From Eledone cirrhosa (lineage: Eukaryota), in NCBI GenBank assembly GCA_964016885.1, contig OZ024742.1, forward strand, positions 302,870,001-302,934,000: a DNA stretch of 64,000 nucleotides, given 5' to 3'. The position numbers and the translations under genes are program-made. Positions 1-55,967 of this stretch are shown piece after piece (the stretch's first letter is position 1; every line of letters starts with the position of its first letter). The notes beneath the pieces were generated by a model. It did no database searches and was not told where the DNA came from. It saw only the letters and a program-made list of their open reading frames with translations.

Positions 1-127
1 GAGGGATGGGGGGAAGAAGGAAATAAAGGAAGCGATAAAAGAATAAAAAGATCTTACGTCTCCCTTGGCAAGCAGGGGTTACCCATTGCAAAATCGGCAA
101 GAGGTGTTATAGTCCTAGTCTACCGCC

Positions 128-1124
128 CCCCTCCCCTAGTCTAGGATAGATTTGGCGGACCCCGCTTTTTATAGCAGCTGGTTTAGACCCCGGATACTTG
201 CCCCCTTTTTCCGACCGCTCCCACTATTTTCCGTGCCTTCTATATTTCTTAGTGACATTTATGCCTTATTTTCTCGTTTCAGTTTTTCTTTCTTCGCTTT
301 TCTTTTGGGCGGGGTGGATTCTGAATTTATTTTTCCGTATTCTACCTTTACTTCGTACGAACTTTCATGTAGCTTGTATAAGACCTTTTAGAGTTAGCAT
401 TAGTATATATTTTTTTCGGGACTCAGAATTATTATCTCGTACTAGTTTACTTTGCTGCACTGGGTGGTTGCTGGCATTGTGCCCGGGATAGAAACCTTTA
501 TTATTTATTTCGTGGTAGTCTCTTTAGTATTTTGGCACCATTTGTTGACCCGTCACCGTATGATTTACGTACTTATACCTCTTAAAAGGGTCCTTGCCTA
601 TTCCGTCCCACCTAGTTCATTTACTTATTTCGTTATTTCTTTATTTTTTTCTTTACTTCTTTCTTTCTTTATTTATTTATTTATCTAGCCTAACAATAGC
701 TAGAGACTTAGGTCGTAGAACTTGCTTTACTTTTTTCTTTACACTTATTCGCTTTTCTTCACTCTCAGTATTTTTTCTTTCATATATATTTTTACCCCTC
801 ATTGTTCTAACTACCGTTCCGACTTCCTCCCCCTCCCCAGTATATTCTTTGACCTCATGCCCAGCTGTAGCTGGCACTACCAACGCTTGATTGAGTCTAC
901 TCCACCCCCTCCCCTCTTTCTCCTACTGGCAGGTTTAGCCACCATCTCCCCTACTAATTTGCAATCACAGAATTACTACTGACTTTTGACAATCACTTTA
1001 ACCATATATGGAATTACCCCTTGAGAAGATCGGCTATTTAAATACCAGGATAAATTTTCATTTAGTCCAGAATTAGCCGTCGAAACGGCTTGAGCTCAGC
1101 CGTCGGGGTCTTACTGGTTCCTAT
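128..1124 (+). repeat. 5' pseudo-LTR (direct repeat of 3662-4651)
   Basis: Near-identical to 3662-4651 with scattered substitutions and a 7-nt indel. Confidence 0.95.
1009..1122 (+). ncRNA. Type I hammerhead ribozyme, U3:A8 core variant, extended stem II
   Basis: Stem I ACCCC(1016-20)/GGGGT(1105-09); core TTGAGAA (1021-27); stem II GATCGGCTA...TAGCCGTC; GAAA (1082-85); stem III CGGCT/AGCCG around TGAGCTC; GTC cleavage triplet ending at 1104. Confidence 0.8.
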
Positions 1125-1362
1125 TACCCACTCTACACCCCAAGTATTGAGTACTTTGGTGCGTTATGGTCCACCTGGTTCCTTACCACATTTCCTTCGT
1201 TATCTAGCTCCTATTCCCGTAGTAGAGCACTTTCCGACCTTACCACGCCGTATCCAGACTTTTCCGCTAAGCTCAATTCCTTTCACCCGCACCATGCGAT
1301 AACACAACATTGACTTCTCTACCAAGAACATCCCAATCCCACCGAAAAAACTGTACCTTCGG

Positions 1363-3450
1363 ATGCTCACGCAAAAAATCGATCTATTTGCGAAAAGACT
1401 TAGATGGAGAACTTTTTTCTATGACAGATATTGCGACAACCAGGACTTCGGCACCAAGGAGAGATTCGGATTTATTACCTACAAATTTCCGCCCCCGAAC
1501 CCCTTGCTCTCACCCTTCGAGAATGACCTCTTCCAACTGGTCAAGAACATTAAATTTAAACCCAGACACAACCGATTCTTACAAAAACTCCGTAGCAACT
1601 TAACAGAGTATGATAACACCAATGACATCATGGTGCATTCGGATAAAACTGGGAACCTATACTTTGTCAACCCTGACAGATACCACACACTGATCAGGAG
1701 CAGCCTAAACTCCACCTATAAAAAGGCCAACCACTCTTGCATCGAGGACATAAATCGAGATGGACAACAAATTACCTCCAGCCTCGGGGTCGCCGACCGC
1801 ACGGAACCTCTAGACCCACGGACACCATACTTCACACTGAAGGACCATAAATCCGATTTTGACCGTAAACCCTCTATCAGGCTTATTAACCCAACGAAGT
1901 CCGACATAGGGAGAATCAGCAAAAAAATCCTAGACCGCGTGATACCAAAAGTCAAGCAACACGCCCGACTTAGCCTATGGATCAACACCCAGGAAGTAAT
2001 CTCATGGTTCAGCAATATGGAGGATAAACGAGACACTAAATTCATACAGTTCGACATAGAGAGCTACTATGCTTCAATCACCTTACCGCTACTTACTGCC
2101 GCCTTGGACTTCGCCGAAACACTTGTGCCCATCACCGACCAGGAAAGAAAAATCATCCTCCACGCCAGGAAGACAGTCTTACTCTTTGACGACTCTAAAT
2201 GGATAAAAAGAGCTCCCGACTCACCCTTCGACGTCAGCATGGGCGCCACGGATTCGGCGGAGGTCACAGATGTTATAGGATTATTCCTAATAGCCAAACT
2301 CACTGATATGTTTCCTGCATTCGGTGGTGGATTGTACCGTGATGATGGGCTCCTTACCCTTAAAGGGTACAACCCCAGTAGTACAGATCGGGTCCGGAAA
2401 CAATTAATCAGTTTCTTCCCCGACTGGGGATTTAAAATAACCCTACAAACGTCCCTGACGCGAGTAAACTTCCTGGACGTGACCCTCGACCTCGAAAACG
2501 ACCTGTACTACCCATACAGGAAACCTAATGACAACCTGCACTACATCTACCACCGATCAAACCATCCTAGGAACATCACAAACAACCTGGTCAAAAACAT
2601 CTCCCTCCGCATATCCCGTTTGTCAGCTAATGAGCGGATATTCGATGAACATGCGCCTTATTACAACCAGGCCCTCAAGCGGAGTGGTTTCCGGGAGGAA
2701 ATATCCTACTGTCCAACTCCCATTAGCGGAACCAGCAGGAGACACCGCCGCTCACGCAATGTAACATGGTTAAATCCTCCCCACAACGCAGAGGTGACAA
2801 CTCCCATCGGGAAACTATTCTTTAGGCTCATTGAAAAACACTTCCCACTACAACACCGCTACCACAACATAATTAACAAAAATACCATCAAACTCTCTTA
2901 CAGCACTACACCAAACTTCGTACAAAACATCGTCTCCTCTAACAACAAAAAACTCAACCCCGATGGCAGAAATAACCTAAATAGCAGTGGAGAACCGACC
3001 AGGAGGTGTAACTGTCCGGATAGATCCATTTGCCCACTCGACAATAGATGCAGAGACCGTAATGTGATCTACCAGTGCAACGTGAGGACGGATACCTCCA
3101 ACAAAGCCTATATAGGACTAACCGCCTGTGACTTCAAGACCCGGCTATACCAACATAGACATACCTTCCGAAACCCGGCCCGACGTCACGCCACTACACT
3201 TTCGGGCCACATATGGGACCTCAAGGACAACAACATGACCTATGATCTCACTTGGAGATTACTGTCCAGAGCCAATTCTTACACGGGAGGACGCCGTCCG
3301 TGCAATTTATGCTCGGAGGAAACTTTACAAATACTGTTTTCGACGGACCAACTCATAAACAAGAAAGATGAACTGGTTACTGCATGTAAACATAGATTGC
3401 GTAGGACTTACCTCGCCCTCAAACCCCATAATGACCCGGGGAGGGGGTAG
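1363..3450 (+). CDS. PLE reverse transcriptase - GIY-YIG endonuclease polyprotein (695 aa)
   Basis: RT motifs SDKTGN, IRLINPTKSDIGRISK, FDIESYY, VSMGATDSAE, LYRDDGL, VNFLDV; Cys linker CNCPDRSICPLDNRC; GIY-YIG VIY...YIGLT; C-terminal CNLCSEE and CKH. An in-frame upstream ATG at 1294 is followed by TAA at 1300. Confidence 0.95.
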   Translation: MLTQKIDLFAKRLRWRTFFYDRYCDNQDFGTKERFGFITYKFPPPNPLLSPFENDLFQLVKNIKFKPRHNRFLQKLRSNLTEYDNTNDIMVHSDKTGNLYFVNPDRYHTLIRSSLNSTYKKANHSCIEDINRDGQQITSSLGVADRTEPLDPRTPYFTLKDHKSDFDRKPSIRLINPTKSDIGRISKKILDRVIPKVKQHARLSLWINTQEVISWFSNMEDKRDTKFIQFDIESYYASITLPLLTAALDFAETLVPITDQERKIILHARKTVLLFDDSKWIKRAPDSPFDVSMGATDSAEVTDVIGLFLIAKLTDMFPAFGGGLYRDDGLLTLKGYNPSSTDRVRKQLISFFPDWGFKITLQTSLTRVNFLDVTLDLENDLYYPYRKPNDNLHYIYHRSNHPRNITNNLVKNISLRISRLSANERIFDEHAPYYNQALKRSGFREEISYCPTPISGTSRRHRRSRNVTWLNPPHNAEVTTPIGKLFFRLIEKHFPLQHRYHNIINKNTIKLSYSTTPNFVQNIVSSNNKKLNPDGRNNLNSSGEPTRRCNCPDRSICPLDNRCRDRNVIYQCNVRTDTSNKAYIGLTACDFKTRLYQHRHTFRNPARRHATTLSGHIWDLKDNNMTYDLTWRLLSRANSYTGGRRPCNLCSEETLQILFSTDQLINKKDELVTACKHRLRRTYLALKPHNDPGRG

Positions 3451-3661
3451 AACTATAACACCTCTTGCCGATTTTGCAATGGGTAACCCCTGCTTGCCAA
3501 GGGAGACGTAAGATCTTCTTTTTATTCTTTTATCGCTTCCTTTATTTCCTTCTTCCCCCCATCCCTCCTTAGTCCTTCTACCCCAGCTCTTCTTCTTTGT
3601 CGGCGTTTTTTCTCGCCCACCCGAGGCTGCCCTTTGGTCCCTTGTAGCCTCAGTACCCCCA

Positions 3662-4646
3662 CCCCTCCCCTAGTCTATGATAGATTTGGCGGACTCCGCT
3701 TTTTATAGCAGCTGGTTTAGACCCCGGATACTTGCCCCCTTTTTCCAACCGCTCCCACTATTTTCCGTGCCTTCTATATTTCTTAGTGGCACTTATGCCT
3801 TATTTTCTCGTTTCAATTTTTCTTTCTTCGCTTTTCTTTTGGGCGGGGTGGATTCTGAATTTATTTTTCCGTATTCTACCTTTACTTCGTACGAACTTTC
3901 ATGTAGCTTGTATAAGACCTTTTAGAGTTAGCATTAGTATATATTTTTTTCGGGACTCAGAATTATTATCTCGTACTAGTTTACTTTGCTGCACTGGGTG
4001 GTTGCTGGCATTGTGCCCGGGATAGAAACCTTTATTATTTATTTCGTGGTAGTTTCTTTAGTATTTTGGCACCATTTGTTGACCCGTCACCGTATGATTT
4101 ACGTACTTATACCTCTTAAAAGGGTCCTTGCCTATTCCGTCCCACCTAGTTCATTTACTTATTTCGTTATTTCTTTATTTCTTTCTTTACTTCTTTCTTT
4201 CTTTCTTTATTTATTTATCTAGCCTAACAATAGCTAGAGACTTAGGTCGTAGAACTTGCTTTACTTTTTTCTTTACACTTATTCGCTTTTCTTCACTCTC
4301 AGTATTTTTTCTTTCATATATATTTTTACCCCTCATTGTTCTAACTACCGTTCCTCCCCCTCCCCAGTATCTTCTTTGACCTCATGCCCAGCTGTAGCTG
4401 GCACTACCAACGCTTGATTGGGTCTACTCCACCCCCTCCCCTCTTTCTCCTACTGGCAGGTTTAGCCACCATCTCCCCTACTAATTTGCAATCACAGAAT
4501 TACTACTGACTTTTGACAATCACTTTGACCATATATGGAATTACCCATTGAGAAGATCGGCTATTTAAATACCAGGATAAATTTTCATTTAGTCCAGAAT
4601 TAGCCGTCGAAACGGCTTGAGCTCAGCCGTCGGGGTCTTACTGGTT

Positions 4647-4651
<5 letters not shown>
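3662..4651 (+). repeat. 3' pseudo-LTR (direct repeat of 128-1124)
   Basis: Direct repeat; ends at TTCCTA followed by (TA)n. Confidence 0.95.
4536..4649 (+). ncRNA. Type I hammerhead ribozyme (U3:A8), copy in 3' pLTR
   Basis: Same as 1009-1122 except C>A at 4547, which breaks the stem I pair next to the core; predicted cleavage after 4631. Confidence 0.7.
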
Positions 4652-5000: not shown

Positions 5001-5528
5001 GTGTATGTCTATGTCTCTGTCTATGTGTACATACGTGTCTGTATATATATGCGAGTGTATTAACATTTCCACGCCAATGTTTATAATTATTGACACACTT
5101 CGAATTTCTCTTATTAAAATGTTGAAGTTGTTACAAATTGTATGTATTTTAATAAGTGTAATATTTGTAATTAAGTTTATTCGAAGATATAAATTATTTC
5201 CCTCTCTGCACTTGTTAAATATAAGGATTCATACACCAGTTTACTTCCATGTATAATATGAAGGTGTTCATTTTATAGATTCATATCTCGGTGTAGTAAT
5301 TAATTCCGGTTTGTTGGAATTATTATCTTTGTAGTTTTTGATGTTTTTAGCCCCTCGTCATCACTGAAAGAATATACCTATGATCAAATGTACTGCCGGT
5401 TTAGATGTCCTGTACTTGAAAATATGACGATCGTTCTATCTAATTTTGTGATCAATGGGGTCTAGGACTACAGAGCACTGTGATATTGGGATGAACTTTG
5501 TCTATTATTATTATTTCATCGTGAAACG

Positions 5529-6475
5529 GGCGGTGGATTGGCAGTATCGGTAGAGAGTCGGACGTCATGCTTTGCAGCATAGAGTTCAAATTTCGCCGAG
5601 GTTAACGTTGCCTTTCATCCTTACGGGGTCTATAAAATAAAGTACCAGTCACGCACTGGGGTCGATCTAATCAACTTTCCTCTCCCCCAAAATTGCTGGC
5701 CTTGTGCGTATATAAGAAACCATTATTCGCGAAACGAACGGTGGATTGGTAGTATCGGTAGAGAGTCGGACATCATACTTTATAGCAATGAGTAAACAGA
5801 CCTTTCTGTTCTGAGTTCAAATCCCGCCGAGGTTATCTTTGATTTTCATCCTTACGTGGTCGATAAAATAAAGTATTAGTAAGCACTGTGGTCGATTTAA
5901 TCGACTTTCTCCTCCCCTTGAAATTGTTGGCCTTGTGCCTAAAGTAGAACCAATTATTGTTAGCGTGGGAGATTTTTCTTGCTTTTTACATTCCGAATTA
6001 AAAATCGCCGCCAATCTGAACTTTGGCTTTCACCCTTTCGTGGTAGATAAGATAAAGTACCAGTAGCGCACTGGTTTTGATTTAATCGACTCGCCCCTCA
6101 CCCCGAAAATTGTTTACCTTGTGCCAAAATCAGAAGAGGGTCGGATGCTATTCTTTGCAGCATAGAGTTACGCCCCTTTATGGTGTGAGGTCAAATCCCG
6201 CCGAGGTTAACTTTGCCTTTCATCCTTATGGGGGTCGATAAAATAAAGTACCAGTAATGCACTGATATAATTGCTGGCCTTGTGCCAACAGTATAAACAA
6301 TTATTATTAGCGTGGGAGATTCTTTTGGTTTTTTACATTCCGACTTGAAAACCCGCCGTTGTGAACTTTGGCTTTCACCTTTTCGGCATAGATACGATAA
6401 AGTACCAGTAATTTACAGGGGTCATTATGATCGGCTTCCCACTCCCCAAAATTGCTGGATTTGTGCCTAAATTAT
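5529..6475 (+). mobile_element. Cluster of ~5 tRNA-derived Nin-domain SINE copies and fragments
   Basis: A box TGGCAGTATCGGT, B box GAGTTCAAATCC, central GCCTTTCATCCTTACGGGGTCGATAAAATAAAGTACC, tail GGCCTTGTGCC..AGAAAC(A/C)ATTATT, all repeated. Confidence 0.88.
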
Positions 6476-50319: not shown

Positions 50320-50322
<3 letters not shown>

Positions 50323-50492
50323 AAATGTTAAACCCCGACGGCAGAGCTCAAGCCGTTTCGGCGGCTATTTCTGGACTAAATTAGAACTTTTTGGGGGTTT
50401 AACATTTTCCTATTACCCACTATACTACCCTAAGTATTGTGTACTCTGGTGCGTTATGGTCCATCTAGTTCCTTACCACACCTCCTTCGTTA
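50320..50492. mobile_element. Hairpin mini-PLE: inverted hammerhead 3' half + forward pLTR tail
   Basis: 50320-50381 is the reverse complement of ~1060-1122 (diverged); 50394-50492 is homologous to 1105-1202; TA flanks. Confidence 0.85.
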
Positions 50493-50712
50493 TATGTATA
50501 TATATATATAAAGTCAAAATGAATGAAGCAATACTCATTTAGGCTTGACATTAAGGCTGAATATAGAAATGTTTACCTCAATGAAATTCAGGATTCAGAA
50601 TCTTTATAATTGTTCTCCCTTTACAGTTCCACGTTGCATATAGGTAGATTGAAAGACTTTTGAATGCATCCTGTTTTTAAAATATAGAATTATTTGCTAT
50701 CATTATAAATAT

Positions 50713-50890
50713 GGCAGTATCGGTAGAGAGTCGGACGCCATGCTTTCCAGCATAGTTACGTCCCTTTACGATCTGAGTTCAAATCCCGCCGAGGTTCACT
50801 TTGTCTTTCACCCTTACGGGGTCGATAAAATAAAGTACCAGTAATGCACTGGGTAATTGCTGGCCTTGTGCCAAAATTTGAAACAATTAT
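50713..50890 (+). mobile_element. Nin-domain tRNA-SINE with TSD ATTATAAATATG
   Basis: Consensus match; TSD at 50702-50713 and 50886-50897. Confidence 0.9.
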
Positions 50891-52224
50891 AAATATGTAA
50901 TATTTCTTTCGTTTTTATTATCATTTTAAGGTGTGTTCCCGATGAGAAGTATCATCTTGTTACGTTAATATATTTTGTGAATGAGTAGAGAATGGAATGT
51001 TAAGATATCAATAAAAATAAATTACCTATGTAAAGTTAGTGAAATAGCACTGACTGGAAATTCTAAACCACACACCATTGTAAAACGAACTCTGTGGGAA
51101 GTTATCTTATTCTCCTCTCTTTGCCTAAACCCACTATCCTTTATTTCTTTAGCACCGTTCCAAAAAGGTGGAAAAATGATATTAGATTTTCTCACGTTTG
51201 GAAGTTCGAAAAAATACTATTTATTGTCCTATCTGAAAGGAATTGTGTTCACCCAGGAAATGAAACCAACTCGTTAAGCTGCGTTACCGAGATCATGTCT
51301 CTTATACACGGCAACTTTTCAATATTTGCTTCTTTTCATTTGACTTGAGACAAAACGGATAATTTATGAGTATGCAGTTAAAGTTCATATATTTCTGGAA
51401 AGCAGTTGCAGCTAAACACAAGTCCTCTGAAGTTTCCAGTTTCATTTACTTTATATTCAGATCTTGGTGGGTTGATTTTTCACCCCTTAATATAAATATC
51501 ACAAATGTACTGGAGCTTAGTTAAGTACACGTTGTTTTTGCCCCTTAATATAAACACTACTCATGTACTGATGTTTAAACAATAAACAATACTTACAACT
51601 GACGAACTGTGATAGTCTGCTCATGTAATAAATGGATATTATTGGTTAAAATCATATCGTGTGGTCAATATTATGCTATGTTTTGAAGGAGATTTTGTGA
51701 TGGCCTTATTCTATATTGATATTTTCGAATACATCTCTTTAGATTTATTGATCTCTCTCAAAATATTGTTTTGATAGAGACTTTTGACGATCCTATTTAA
51801 TATTCCTTTTCATCAAATAAACACTTCCATCACACTATAGATTAATACAATATACCTGACTAGGGTGGCCAACAATACTGCGACTGTTATTATTCATATC
51901 TCAACCACCAAGAAGAGACTGTAAATCGTTTATCAGATTTTCCGATATTTCCAACTTTTTTTTATAATCATCGACTATTATTATGGTAATTTGCGTGGGA
52001 AGCACACATTTCAAAATTAAAATTTTCCCAATGCTTCCCAAGGCAACCGCTTTATTTACATGTCTAGCTATAGGCGTAAAATATTTTAAAAGACGTAGTT
52101 GTTGACCAGCAGTCCTTTAGCGTAGTGGTTAAAGAATTCATCTGGCACTGGAGAAGATACAAGGTTAGATTACTCACTAGGAGTATCGTACCCGGTTTTC
52201 GCTACTATTATTTTTAGTGATCAA

Positions 52225-54709: not shown

Positions 54710-54953
54710 GTTATCAAGACAGTTATTGCTCCAACCAGTGAATTTACCTTTGATAACTATACTAAATATATATACACTCATTAACACACGTAATACACTT
54801 TATAAATCTATAGAACAAACGCAAGCAATCATTGAAAGCCTTATGTGTAAACAATGCACGCGGAACTCAAAGCTCCTAGTGGACAAGTTCATCGGATTCC
54901 AAACTCGTAAAAAATTACATTCGTAAAAACCGATATATATATATATATATATA

Positions 54954-55151
54954 TAGGAAAAGGTATGACCCCGACGGCAGAGCTCAAGCCATTCCGACGG
55001 CTATTTCTGAGTCCAGAGAATAAGCCGTCGAAACAGCTTAAGCTCTGCCGTCGGGGTCATGCCTTTTCTTATTACCCACTCTACTACCCTAAGTATTGAG
55101 TATTCTGGTGTGTTATGGTCCATCTGGTTCCTTACCACAATTCCTTCATTA
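54954..55151. mobile_element. Hairpin mini-PLE, second copy
   Basis: Inverted arm 54954-55009 and forward arm 55010-55151 (hammerhead 3' half + ~80-nt tail homologous to 1065-1202); (TA)n on both sides. Confidence 0.87.
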
Positions 55152-55445
55152 TATATATATATATATATATATATGTGTACATACGTGTTCATATATCAGT
55201 TTCAATAACGTAATGAGGCAAACTCATAAATTGTCAATCCTGGTCTGTCTCCAGATTTCTGGTAAGAAATTATATAAAATTCTCGTTTTCTTCTCATTTC
55301 TCCTCATCAGTAACCAATCAGCAATTCGAAAACATTAAAGTCTAACTATTTCCTGTCAGATAAAGGTATATAATAAATTTTCTCTAGTCTGACTCCCACC
55401 ATACATTTTACATTATGCTGGGGAGTATGTCATATATATATATAT

Positions 55446-55566
55446 AGGAAAAAAGTCAGGACCCCGACAGCTGAGCTCCAGCTGTTTCGACAGCTAGATC
55501 CGAACGAAACCAGTAGTGTTAGGACGGTAGTGATCTAGCTGAACTTATCAAGGGGTACAGTCCATA
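55446..55566 (-). ncRNA. Type I hammerhead with U3:A8 core (UUGAUAA) from a diverged PLE family pLTR end
   Basis: Minus strand: ACCCC-TTGATAA-GTTCAGCTAGATC...GATCTAGCTGTC-GAAA-CAGCTG-GAGCT-CAGCTG-TC-GGGGT..TTCCTA(TA)n. Confidence 0.82.
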
Positions 55567-55967
55567 TATGGACATGTAATCAAAACATAGCAGTAGTATC
55601 ATATCAAACAATCCTAAACATTGTTGTTTTTCTTTTCTGTCACGGGGAGTGGTCAAAGATTTTGGAATGTCGTATACATAGTTAAATTCCTTCATAGCGG
55701 CGGGTGGAGGTGAGGGTGGCTGGGCTTGGCTGTAGAACAAACGTGATGGAGTAAGATGACATTCTGATCTGTGGATGCCAGGCCACTCATGCGTTAAGGG
55801 AGAATTCTTTACAGCTATCTCTAAAGGGGGTAAGAACCTATGAGAAACAAGGAATATTGTAGAGTGAAAATGAATATACCAGGTCTCTCTCTATATATAT
55901 ATCTTCATACTGTCAACAATACCCACTTTGTGGTGTTCACATGACTTCATTATATTTCCGTTCAATA

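Follow-up and report, generated by a model that had tools for sequence, protein, structure and literature searches.

Hairpin-and-tail inserts of Penelope-like elements (PLEs), the U3:A8 variant of the hammerhead ribozyme and R2 junctions set by a ribozyme are already known. In vitro, a PLE protein can nick each strand of AT-rich DNA and extend the ends so made; in the same work two internal RNA start sites define the tail, with uncut RNA mainly used (PMC11167929). The accessible sections of PMC8557442 characterise the Hydra clade by the motif set RW[K/R], DKT, a CxCx5C linker, CxxC and CxH. For Penelope, the promoter is described as internal and TATA-less, with an initiator (PMC2377424, in its available part), and in D. 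virilis the transcription start precedes an intron whose end falls at helix I (available parts of PMC2377424 and PMC4209133). At L1/SVA insertions an untemplated 5' G has been attributed to copying of the cap (PMC3287187, sections available). For PLE hammerheads, evidence of RNA cleavage in vivo is described as absent (PMC4209133, available part).

The window analysed here is a stretch of 64,000 nucleotides from Eledone cirrhosa, and its positions 1-4650 hold an element with the open reading frame and pseudo-LTR layout of a PLE of the EN+ type (Table 1). The predicted 715-codon product contains YRDDG at 345 and YIG at 603, together with the Hydra-clade motifs RWR (34), DKT (114), CNCPDRSIC (569), CNLC (667) and CKH (695). 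As judged from this translation, the element carries the motif set described for the clade and is a putative member of it. The frame has 801 protein relatives at E<=1e-20, mostly unnamed, and a Pfam-A scan of the element returned no family at E 0.001 or 10. The element may continue beyond the window start, where an inverted copy lies at 1-117.

The upstream pseudo-LTR contains a complete type-I hammerhead, in which all three helices are predicted to fold around the core YUGANRA / GAAA / UH, and the U3:A8 core named in the original prediction stands at 1021-1027. Standard pairs fill 93% of the pair cells in 12 natural hammerhead copies; stem I does not vary among them, and core position 7 can be G, U, C or A. 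Four pairs are changed on both sides, all in one divergent copy, and CpG decay could also account for two of them. That copy lies in the window itself (55447-55580, minus strand); it belongs to a divergent subfamily, is truncated and lacks the tail, yet has a complete hammerhead, whose core reads UUGAUAA. An Rfam scan gave no match to a hammerhead model, only TA-repeat miRNA noise. The hammerhead of the downstream pseudo-LTR (4538-4649) has a stem I mismatch beside the core, ACCCA for ACCCC, and a C3:A8 core replaces U3:A8 in copies L038, L080, L110, L082 and L309.

Some 46 kb further on, at 50320-50492, the window holds a 173-bp insert with TA runs on both sides, which by its sequence is a hairpin stub of such a PLE. 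We number its arms from the predicted cut, +1 being the base directly after it (window 1105) and -1 being C17 (1104). The arms are as had been described: the inverted arm matches, on sequence comparison, the reverse-complemented hammerhead 3' half of element 1-4650, and the forward arm begins with GGGGT at 50394, the equivalent of 1105 directly after GUC (1102-1104), and extends through the tail. The centre differs from that description, which placed some 12 nt of filler between the arms. These bases proved to be templated loop II of the insert's own subfamily: when aligned with L372, a natural long copy of that subfamily, 50382-50392 is the onward run of the inverted arm into loop II, and its letters are present unmutated in another hairpin (C4:260890783). 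The inverted arm therefore reaches about -56 and crosses the cut site, and at most one base (the G at 50393) is untemplated. Other classes of repeat were considered and rejected. A non-LTR retrozyme would be expected to form head-to-tail tandem units with complete hammerheads, and the insert is head-to-head with 3' halves only; as for a MITE, the central junction varies from copy to copy and the 80-nt tail stands at one end only.

Table 1. Coordinates of the parent element, its hammerhead and the hairpin insert within the window.
Feature	Position	Strand	Remarks
Inverted truncated copy of 3448-3567, 5' side of element	1-117		
Upstream pseudo-LTR	121-1123	+	98% identical to 3654-4650
Complete type-I hammerhead, autonomous element	1010-1121	+	
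Hammerhead stem I	1016-1020/1105-1109	+	
Hammerhead core UUGAGAA (U3:A8)	1021-1027	+	
Main family 5' breakpoint (-41)	1064-1068	+	AGTCC in loop II, within TTAGT
Hammerhead GAAA	1082-1085	+	C17 = 1104
Upstream pseudo-LTR tail	1122-1203	+	
Open frame, 715 codons (stop to stop)	1303-3450	+	Predicted RT and C-terminal GIY-YIG-type nuclease
Downstream pseudo-LTR	3654-4650	+	98% identical to 121-1123; second hammerhead; ends tail-less in (TA)n
Inverted arm, tail-less	50320-50392	-	Element +17 back to about -56
Cut site within inverted arm	50336/50337	-	
Main -41 end within inverted arm	50377	-	
Junction G	50393	+	Untemplated addition, substitution or fifth G of run; subfamily has A here
Forward arm, +1 to +17 (first family 3' end)	50394-50410	+	Starts at first base after GUC
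Tail, about 80 nt	50411-50492	+	Ends at second family 3' end in (TA)n

The window is rich in other repeats. SINE-like dispersed repeats lie at 5519-6451, 38470, 50712-50891, 52216, 55959, 61999 and 63913, one copy being 220 bp downstream of the insert, and further interspersed repeats form direct and inverted pairs that are 70-92% alike (12247-12927/21132-21811; 16567-18815/25574-27807; 35749/61134).

The insert is an ordinary member of its family, one of tens of thousands of stubs: a 29-nt word from the tail has 24,495 exact copies genome-wide. A second stub in the window, at 54953-55155, is of the common type, with an inverted arm to about -37, a forward arm from -41 and a tail. We assembled a sample of 127 distinct copies, selected solely by their tail, of which 126 were aligned. 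It comprises most of the first 100 tail-word matches, the leading 30 hits of a search subsampled by flank, and further copies close by in the loci concerned; like all samples used here it consists of the first rows in genome order rather than random draws, and hits chosen for their likeness to the insert were left out of the breakpoint histogram. A TA run follows 118 of 121 located tail ends, which agrees with the (TA)n targets of the Hydra clade. Hairpins make up 96 of the 126 aligned copies; in 84 of these the inverted arm stops at the tail-less site, and many have microhomology at the junction. The two arms carry equal subfamily letters in 47 of 49 hairpins (shuffled mean 14). The other two (L066 and L114) have three subfamily letters that are unlike between the arms. 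This suggests that a hairpin can combine two templates, and the joining of one cut and one uncut RNA is conceivable. In L016 and L055 the forward arm is the tail alone and adjoins the inverted arm without overlap, as in classic twin priming on one RNA.

The original prediction had proposed a histogram of 5' breakpoints as its test, with a spike at GTC/GGGGT expected. The spike is present, at about one tenth the size of a peak at -41 that had not been foreseen. Of 126 forward arms in the tail sample, 15 end upstream of -48, 77 at -48..-34, 20 at -33..-1, 4 at +1..+3 and 10 further down, although at the palindromic loop II the alignments run a few bases past -41, and at least one copy near the site (L037) was called wrongly; GUC/GGGG is read through by 110 of 127 forward arms. 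Inverted arms end near -41 in 71 of 96 cases, as do the 77 forward arms. Genome searches with the same geometry at three sites (seven TA letters, 12 free bases, then the arm) gave 892 (TA)n-flanked arms around -41, 165 around +1 and 171 around -23. Among the 100 matches listed for each, pure (TA)n starts at the focal base numbered 37, 17 and 0 by eye, which extrapolates to roughly 330, 28 and 0 copies, the -41 figure being boosted by TA microhomology. The -41 peak is also seen in solo arms adjoining (TA)n, where there is no palindrome, and so is no palindrome artefact. Long poly(A) or poly(T) stands at the hairpin centre, beside the -41 end, in L042, L078 and L244.

An untemplated G precedes the A of -41 in 14 of 61 distinct sites, compared with 1 of 65 at -30, a control position that likewise starts with AG (both by eye; Fisher p 0.0002, and p 0.03 on a stricter subset). 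This extra G suggests a cap. From these junctions, -41 is likely to be an RNA 5' end and probably a capped start. The sequence at -41, TTAGT or TCAGT, resembles an initiator; no match to a Drosophila-type DPE was found at +28..+33 counted from 1064.

The smaller peak was resolved among the 165 (TA)n-flanked arms starting at -9..+5, of which 100 matches were listed and 90 classified by script. Thirty-seven of the 90 start at +1, a count that falls to 34 when CpG decay at -1 is taken into account, and any other base in -9..+5 accounts for at most 9 (mean 3.7-3.9); since the search favours one TA-run parity, the like-for-like neighbours are -2, with 1-2 starts, and +3, with 4. The flanks of the 37 arms are all different. 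Twenty-one carry a tail and 16 do not; the latter (16/90, L320, L323, L334 and L340 for example) are 17-bp (TA)n inserts that span precisely the stretch between the cut site and the first RT start site. An extra G stands at the junction in 3 of the 37, and 34 of the 37 come from two subfamilies other than that of the insert. Because C precedes +1, the peak cannot come from TA microhomology. Nor was there a peak at a sister GUC/G control site, searched with the same geometry and 100 matches listed: pure (TA)n/G starts were 17/100 at +1 against 0/100 at the sister site (p 7e-6), and non-hairpin starts 34/100 against 4/100 at the sister AGCCGTC/G (-24/-23; p 4e-8), all by eye among the matches listed. 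In an independent set, the first 100 of 1,392 arms truncated at -15..+5, from which 13 were dropped as indel-shifted read-through arms, +1 had 10 arms and tied with the microhomology-favoured -14. Here a partner arm crossing the cut site was absent from 9 of 10 arms starting at +1, compared with 22 of 59 starting at -15..-2 (p 0.004). In L259, C1:223403091 and L150 the inverted arm stops exactly at +1, and in two of these the forward arm also starts there. The +1 peak, as read from these junctions, likely records self-cleavage of the element RNA in germ cells in a minority of copies.

Each peak can also be read otherwise. The -41 end could be an RNA end of another kind, produced by a splice acceptor, a slicer or a nuclease cut with no capped start; a pyrimidine run precedes the AG at -41/-40, and the extra G could be plain terminal addition by the RT. 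We judge this unlikely, however, since the AG is retained and the junctions lack a constant upstream exon or leader, grounds on which a splice acceptor at -41 was itself rejected. A similarly low probability falls to the idea that the +1 peak marks where the RT halts at the base of stem III, or where a host nuclease cuts at the first unpaired base beyond it. The subfamilies that make up the peak do have a sixth U-A pair in stem III (column pair 90-98), which would also favour stalling, but a stall should strike forward arms regardless of their partner, whereas arms with a site-crossing partner show no peak, a dependence to be expected of an RNA cut but not of an RT stall. A stall should, moreover, favour -1 (7/90, several by microhomology) over +1 (37/90), and the sister GUC/G site has no peak. 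A cut by a host nuclease may still be the cause. We consider it quite improbable that the hairpins arose by fold-back self-priming, which the available part of PMC3846280 reports as a proposal for head-to-head PLE palindromes, or by the later loss of a palindrome's central part, with breakpoints that have nothing to do with RNA ends. The microhomology at many junctions would fit such an origin, but both peaks are present in solo arms adjoining (TA)n with no palindrome, and in the insert the inverted arm extends further upstream than the forward arm and has no tail, so that neither arm can have been copied from the other by fold-back. The junction of the insert may nonetheless come from central deletion.

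With self-cleavage as the preferred reading of the +1 peak, the mechanism first proposed for the insert, in which the RT copied a self-cleaved RNA to its end and then switched template, is probably real for a minority of the family. For the insert itself this reading probably does not hold, since its subfamily and structural class have no +1 spike and its partner arm crosses the site. We defined the class as copies of the same lineage with an inverted arm reaching -40 (168 matches, 100 listed). Among the 100 matches listed, +1 has 4 clean starts including the insert, or 6-7 with ambiguous ones, and neighbouring bases have 1-6 each (by eye); a script run on the first 30 found 1 start at +1. The insert's subfamily contributes 0 of the 37 starts at +1 and 8 of the 27 at -9..-2. 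Its core is intact in most copies, and yet there is no +1 peak; its stem III is shorter. A dead core (G5 to A in 2/3 copies) was considered as the cause and rejected, most of the 100 listed copies reading UUGAAAA, with A in 5. The forward arm of the insert does begin precisely at +1 and has one additional G, as copies of RNA ends can, in a family where the +1 peak is real; its inverted arm, reaching -56, indicates a long RNA able to hold the whole ribozyme; a similar copy, L282, combines a long partner with a start at +1; and two-template hairpins seem to occur. That the RT copied this arm up to the 5'-OH end of a self-cleaved RNA, the product then being linked to a second cDNA from an uncut RNA, is nevertheless doubtful in our view, given the lack of a +1 excess in class or subfamily (0/37), a partner arm copied through the uncut site, and a supposed template-switch filler that is templated. 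The forward arm of the insert likely ends at the ribozyme site by chance.

We lean towards an account in which hairpins come from dual-strand priming, the +1 end of the insert is a coincidence and other copies derive in part from hammerhead-cut RNA, with both RNA ends (-41 and +1) read back from DNA junctions. Both nicked strands of a (TA)n target would prime the RT at two RNA sites, +17 and about +97. Most templates would begin at -41 in loop II without the 5' half of the ribozyme, and therefore could not self-cut at that end; running off the -41 end, the RT would produce the 58- and 138-nt cDNAs found as stubs. Forward arms are often shorter than 138 nt and end anywhere down to the tail. Longer read-through RNAs would hold the whole ribozyme, and a fraction would be cut at GUC, the 3' piece then being copied to its end to give 17-bp and about 97-bp inserts starting at +1; after such a cut, both cDNAs would have to end at or before +1. 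End joining, through microhomology or with a few added bases, would link the two cDNAs head to head.

A wider reading, to which we would give even chances, is that the stubs amount to a genome-wide map of germ-line RNA 5' ends, with a capped start in loop II and a GUC end, in which cut RNA is retrotransposed and subfamilies differ. If true, the GUC end would be sequence evidence for in vivo cutting by an animal PLE hammerhead. On the map reading, the -41 start would leave the mRNA 5' end with half a hammerhead only, a half that might be completed, end to end, by the 5' half that this mRNA carries in its downstream pseudo-LTR. The sharp +1 excess, tied as it is to the partner arm, is indirect evidence for germ-line cleavage, in which cut RNA would be a side product rather than the main template; the flagged copy does not itself count as such evidence. 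A histogram of stub 5' ends is cheap and could be used in any PLE-rich genome. A literature search outside supplements and most subscription journals found neither a PLE breakpoint pile-up at the hammerhead site nor a start inside loop II; PMC11167929, in its Fig. S2, and PMC8557442, in its file of Hydra hammerheads, may hold relevant data. The accessible sections of PMC8557442 contain no breakpoint analysis, the available part of bioRxiv 10.64898/2026.07.22.740005 does not use 'cleavage site' or 'breakpoint', and 'ribozyme' is absent from that of PMC13282606.

The family resembles the Hydra-clade C-terminal EN+ PLEs in its motif set, canonical hammerhead, (TA)n targets and ORF-plus-pLTR layout (PMC8557442, accessible sections), although its tail is about 80 nt where 30-40 bp are quoted for PLEs. 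It shares with PAc/Poseidon of Anolis two internal RT start sites that set the tail, AT-rich targets and uncut RNA as the main template (PMC11167929). In that system no reads begin or end at the cut site and cleavage is dispensable in vitro, whereas the family here has a minor genomic peak at the cut site and its main peak inside loop II. The U3:A8 minimal hammerheads of the Schistosoma Cercyon PLE are likewise similar in core covariation, in their many truncated copies and in motif pairs on opposite strands, 100-700 bp apart (PMC4209133, available part); unlike those of Cercyon, the ribozyme here has a helix III of 5-6 bp and so may fold as a monomer. The start site of Penelope lies further upstream of the ribozyme, while that of this family would lie inside loop II. 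As with the HDV-like ribozyme of R2, genomic 5' junctions would mirror an RNA self-cleavage site, but in R2 cleavage makes the normal template end and here it would account for a small minority of stubs (PMC3774820, available part). Finally, full-length L1/SVA insertions likewise have a fixed 5' end with an added G that is interpreted as copied from the cap (PMC3287187, sections available); unlike them, the copies here are stubs of 58-138 nt, because the priming sites lie near the RNA 5' end.
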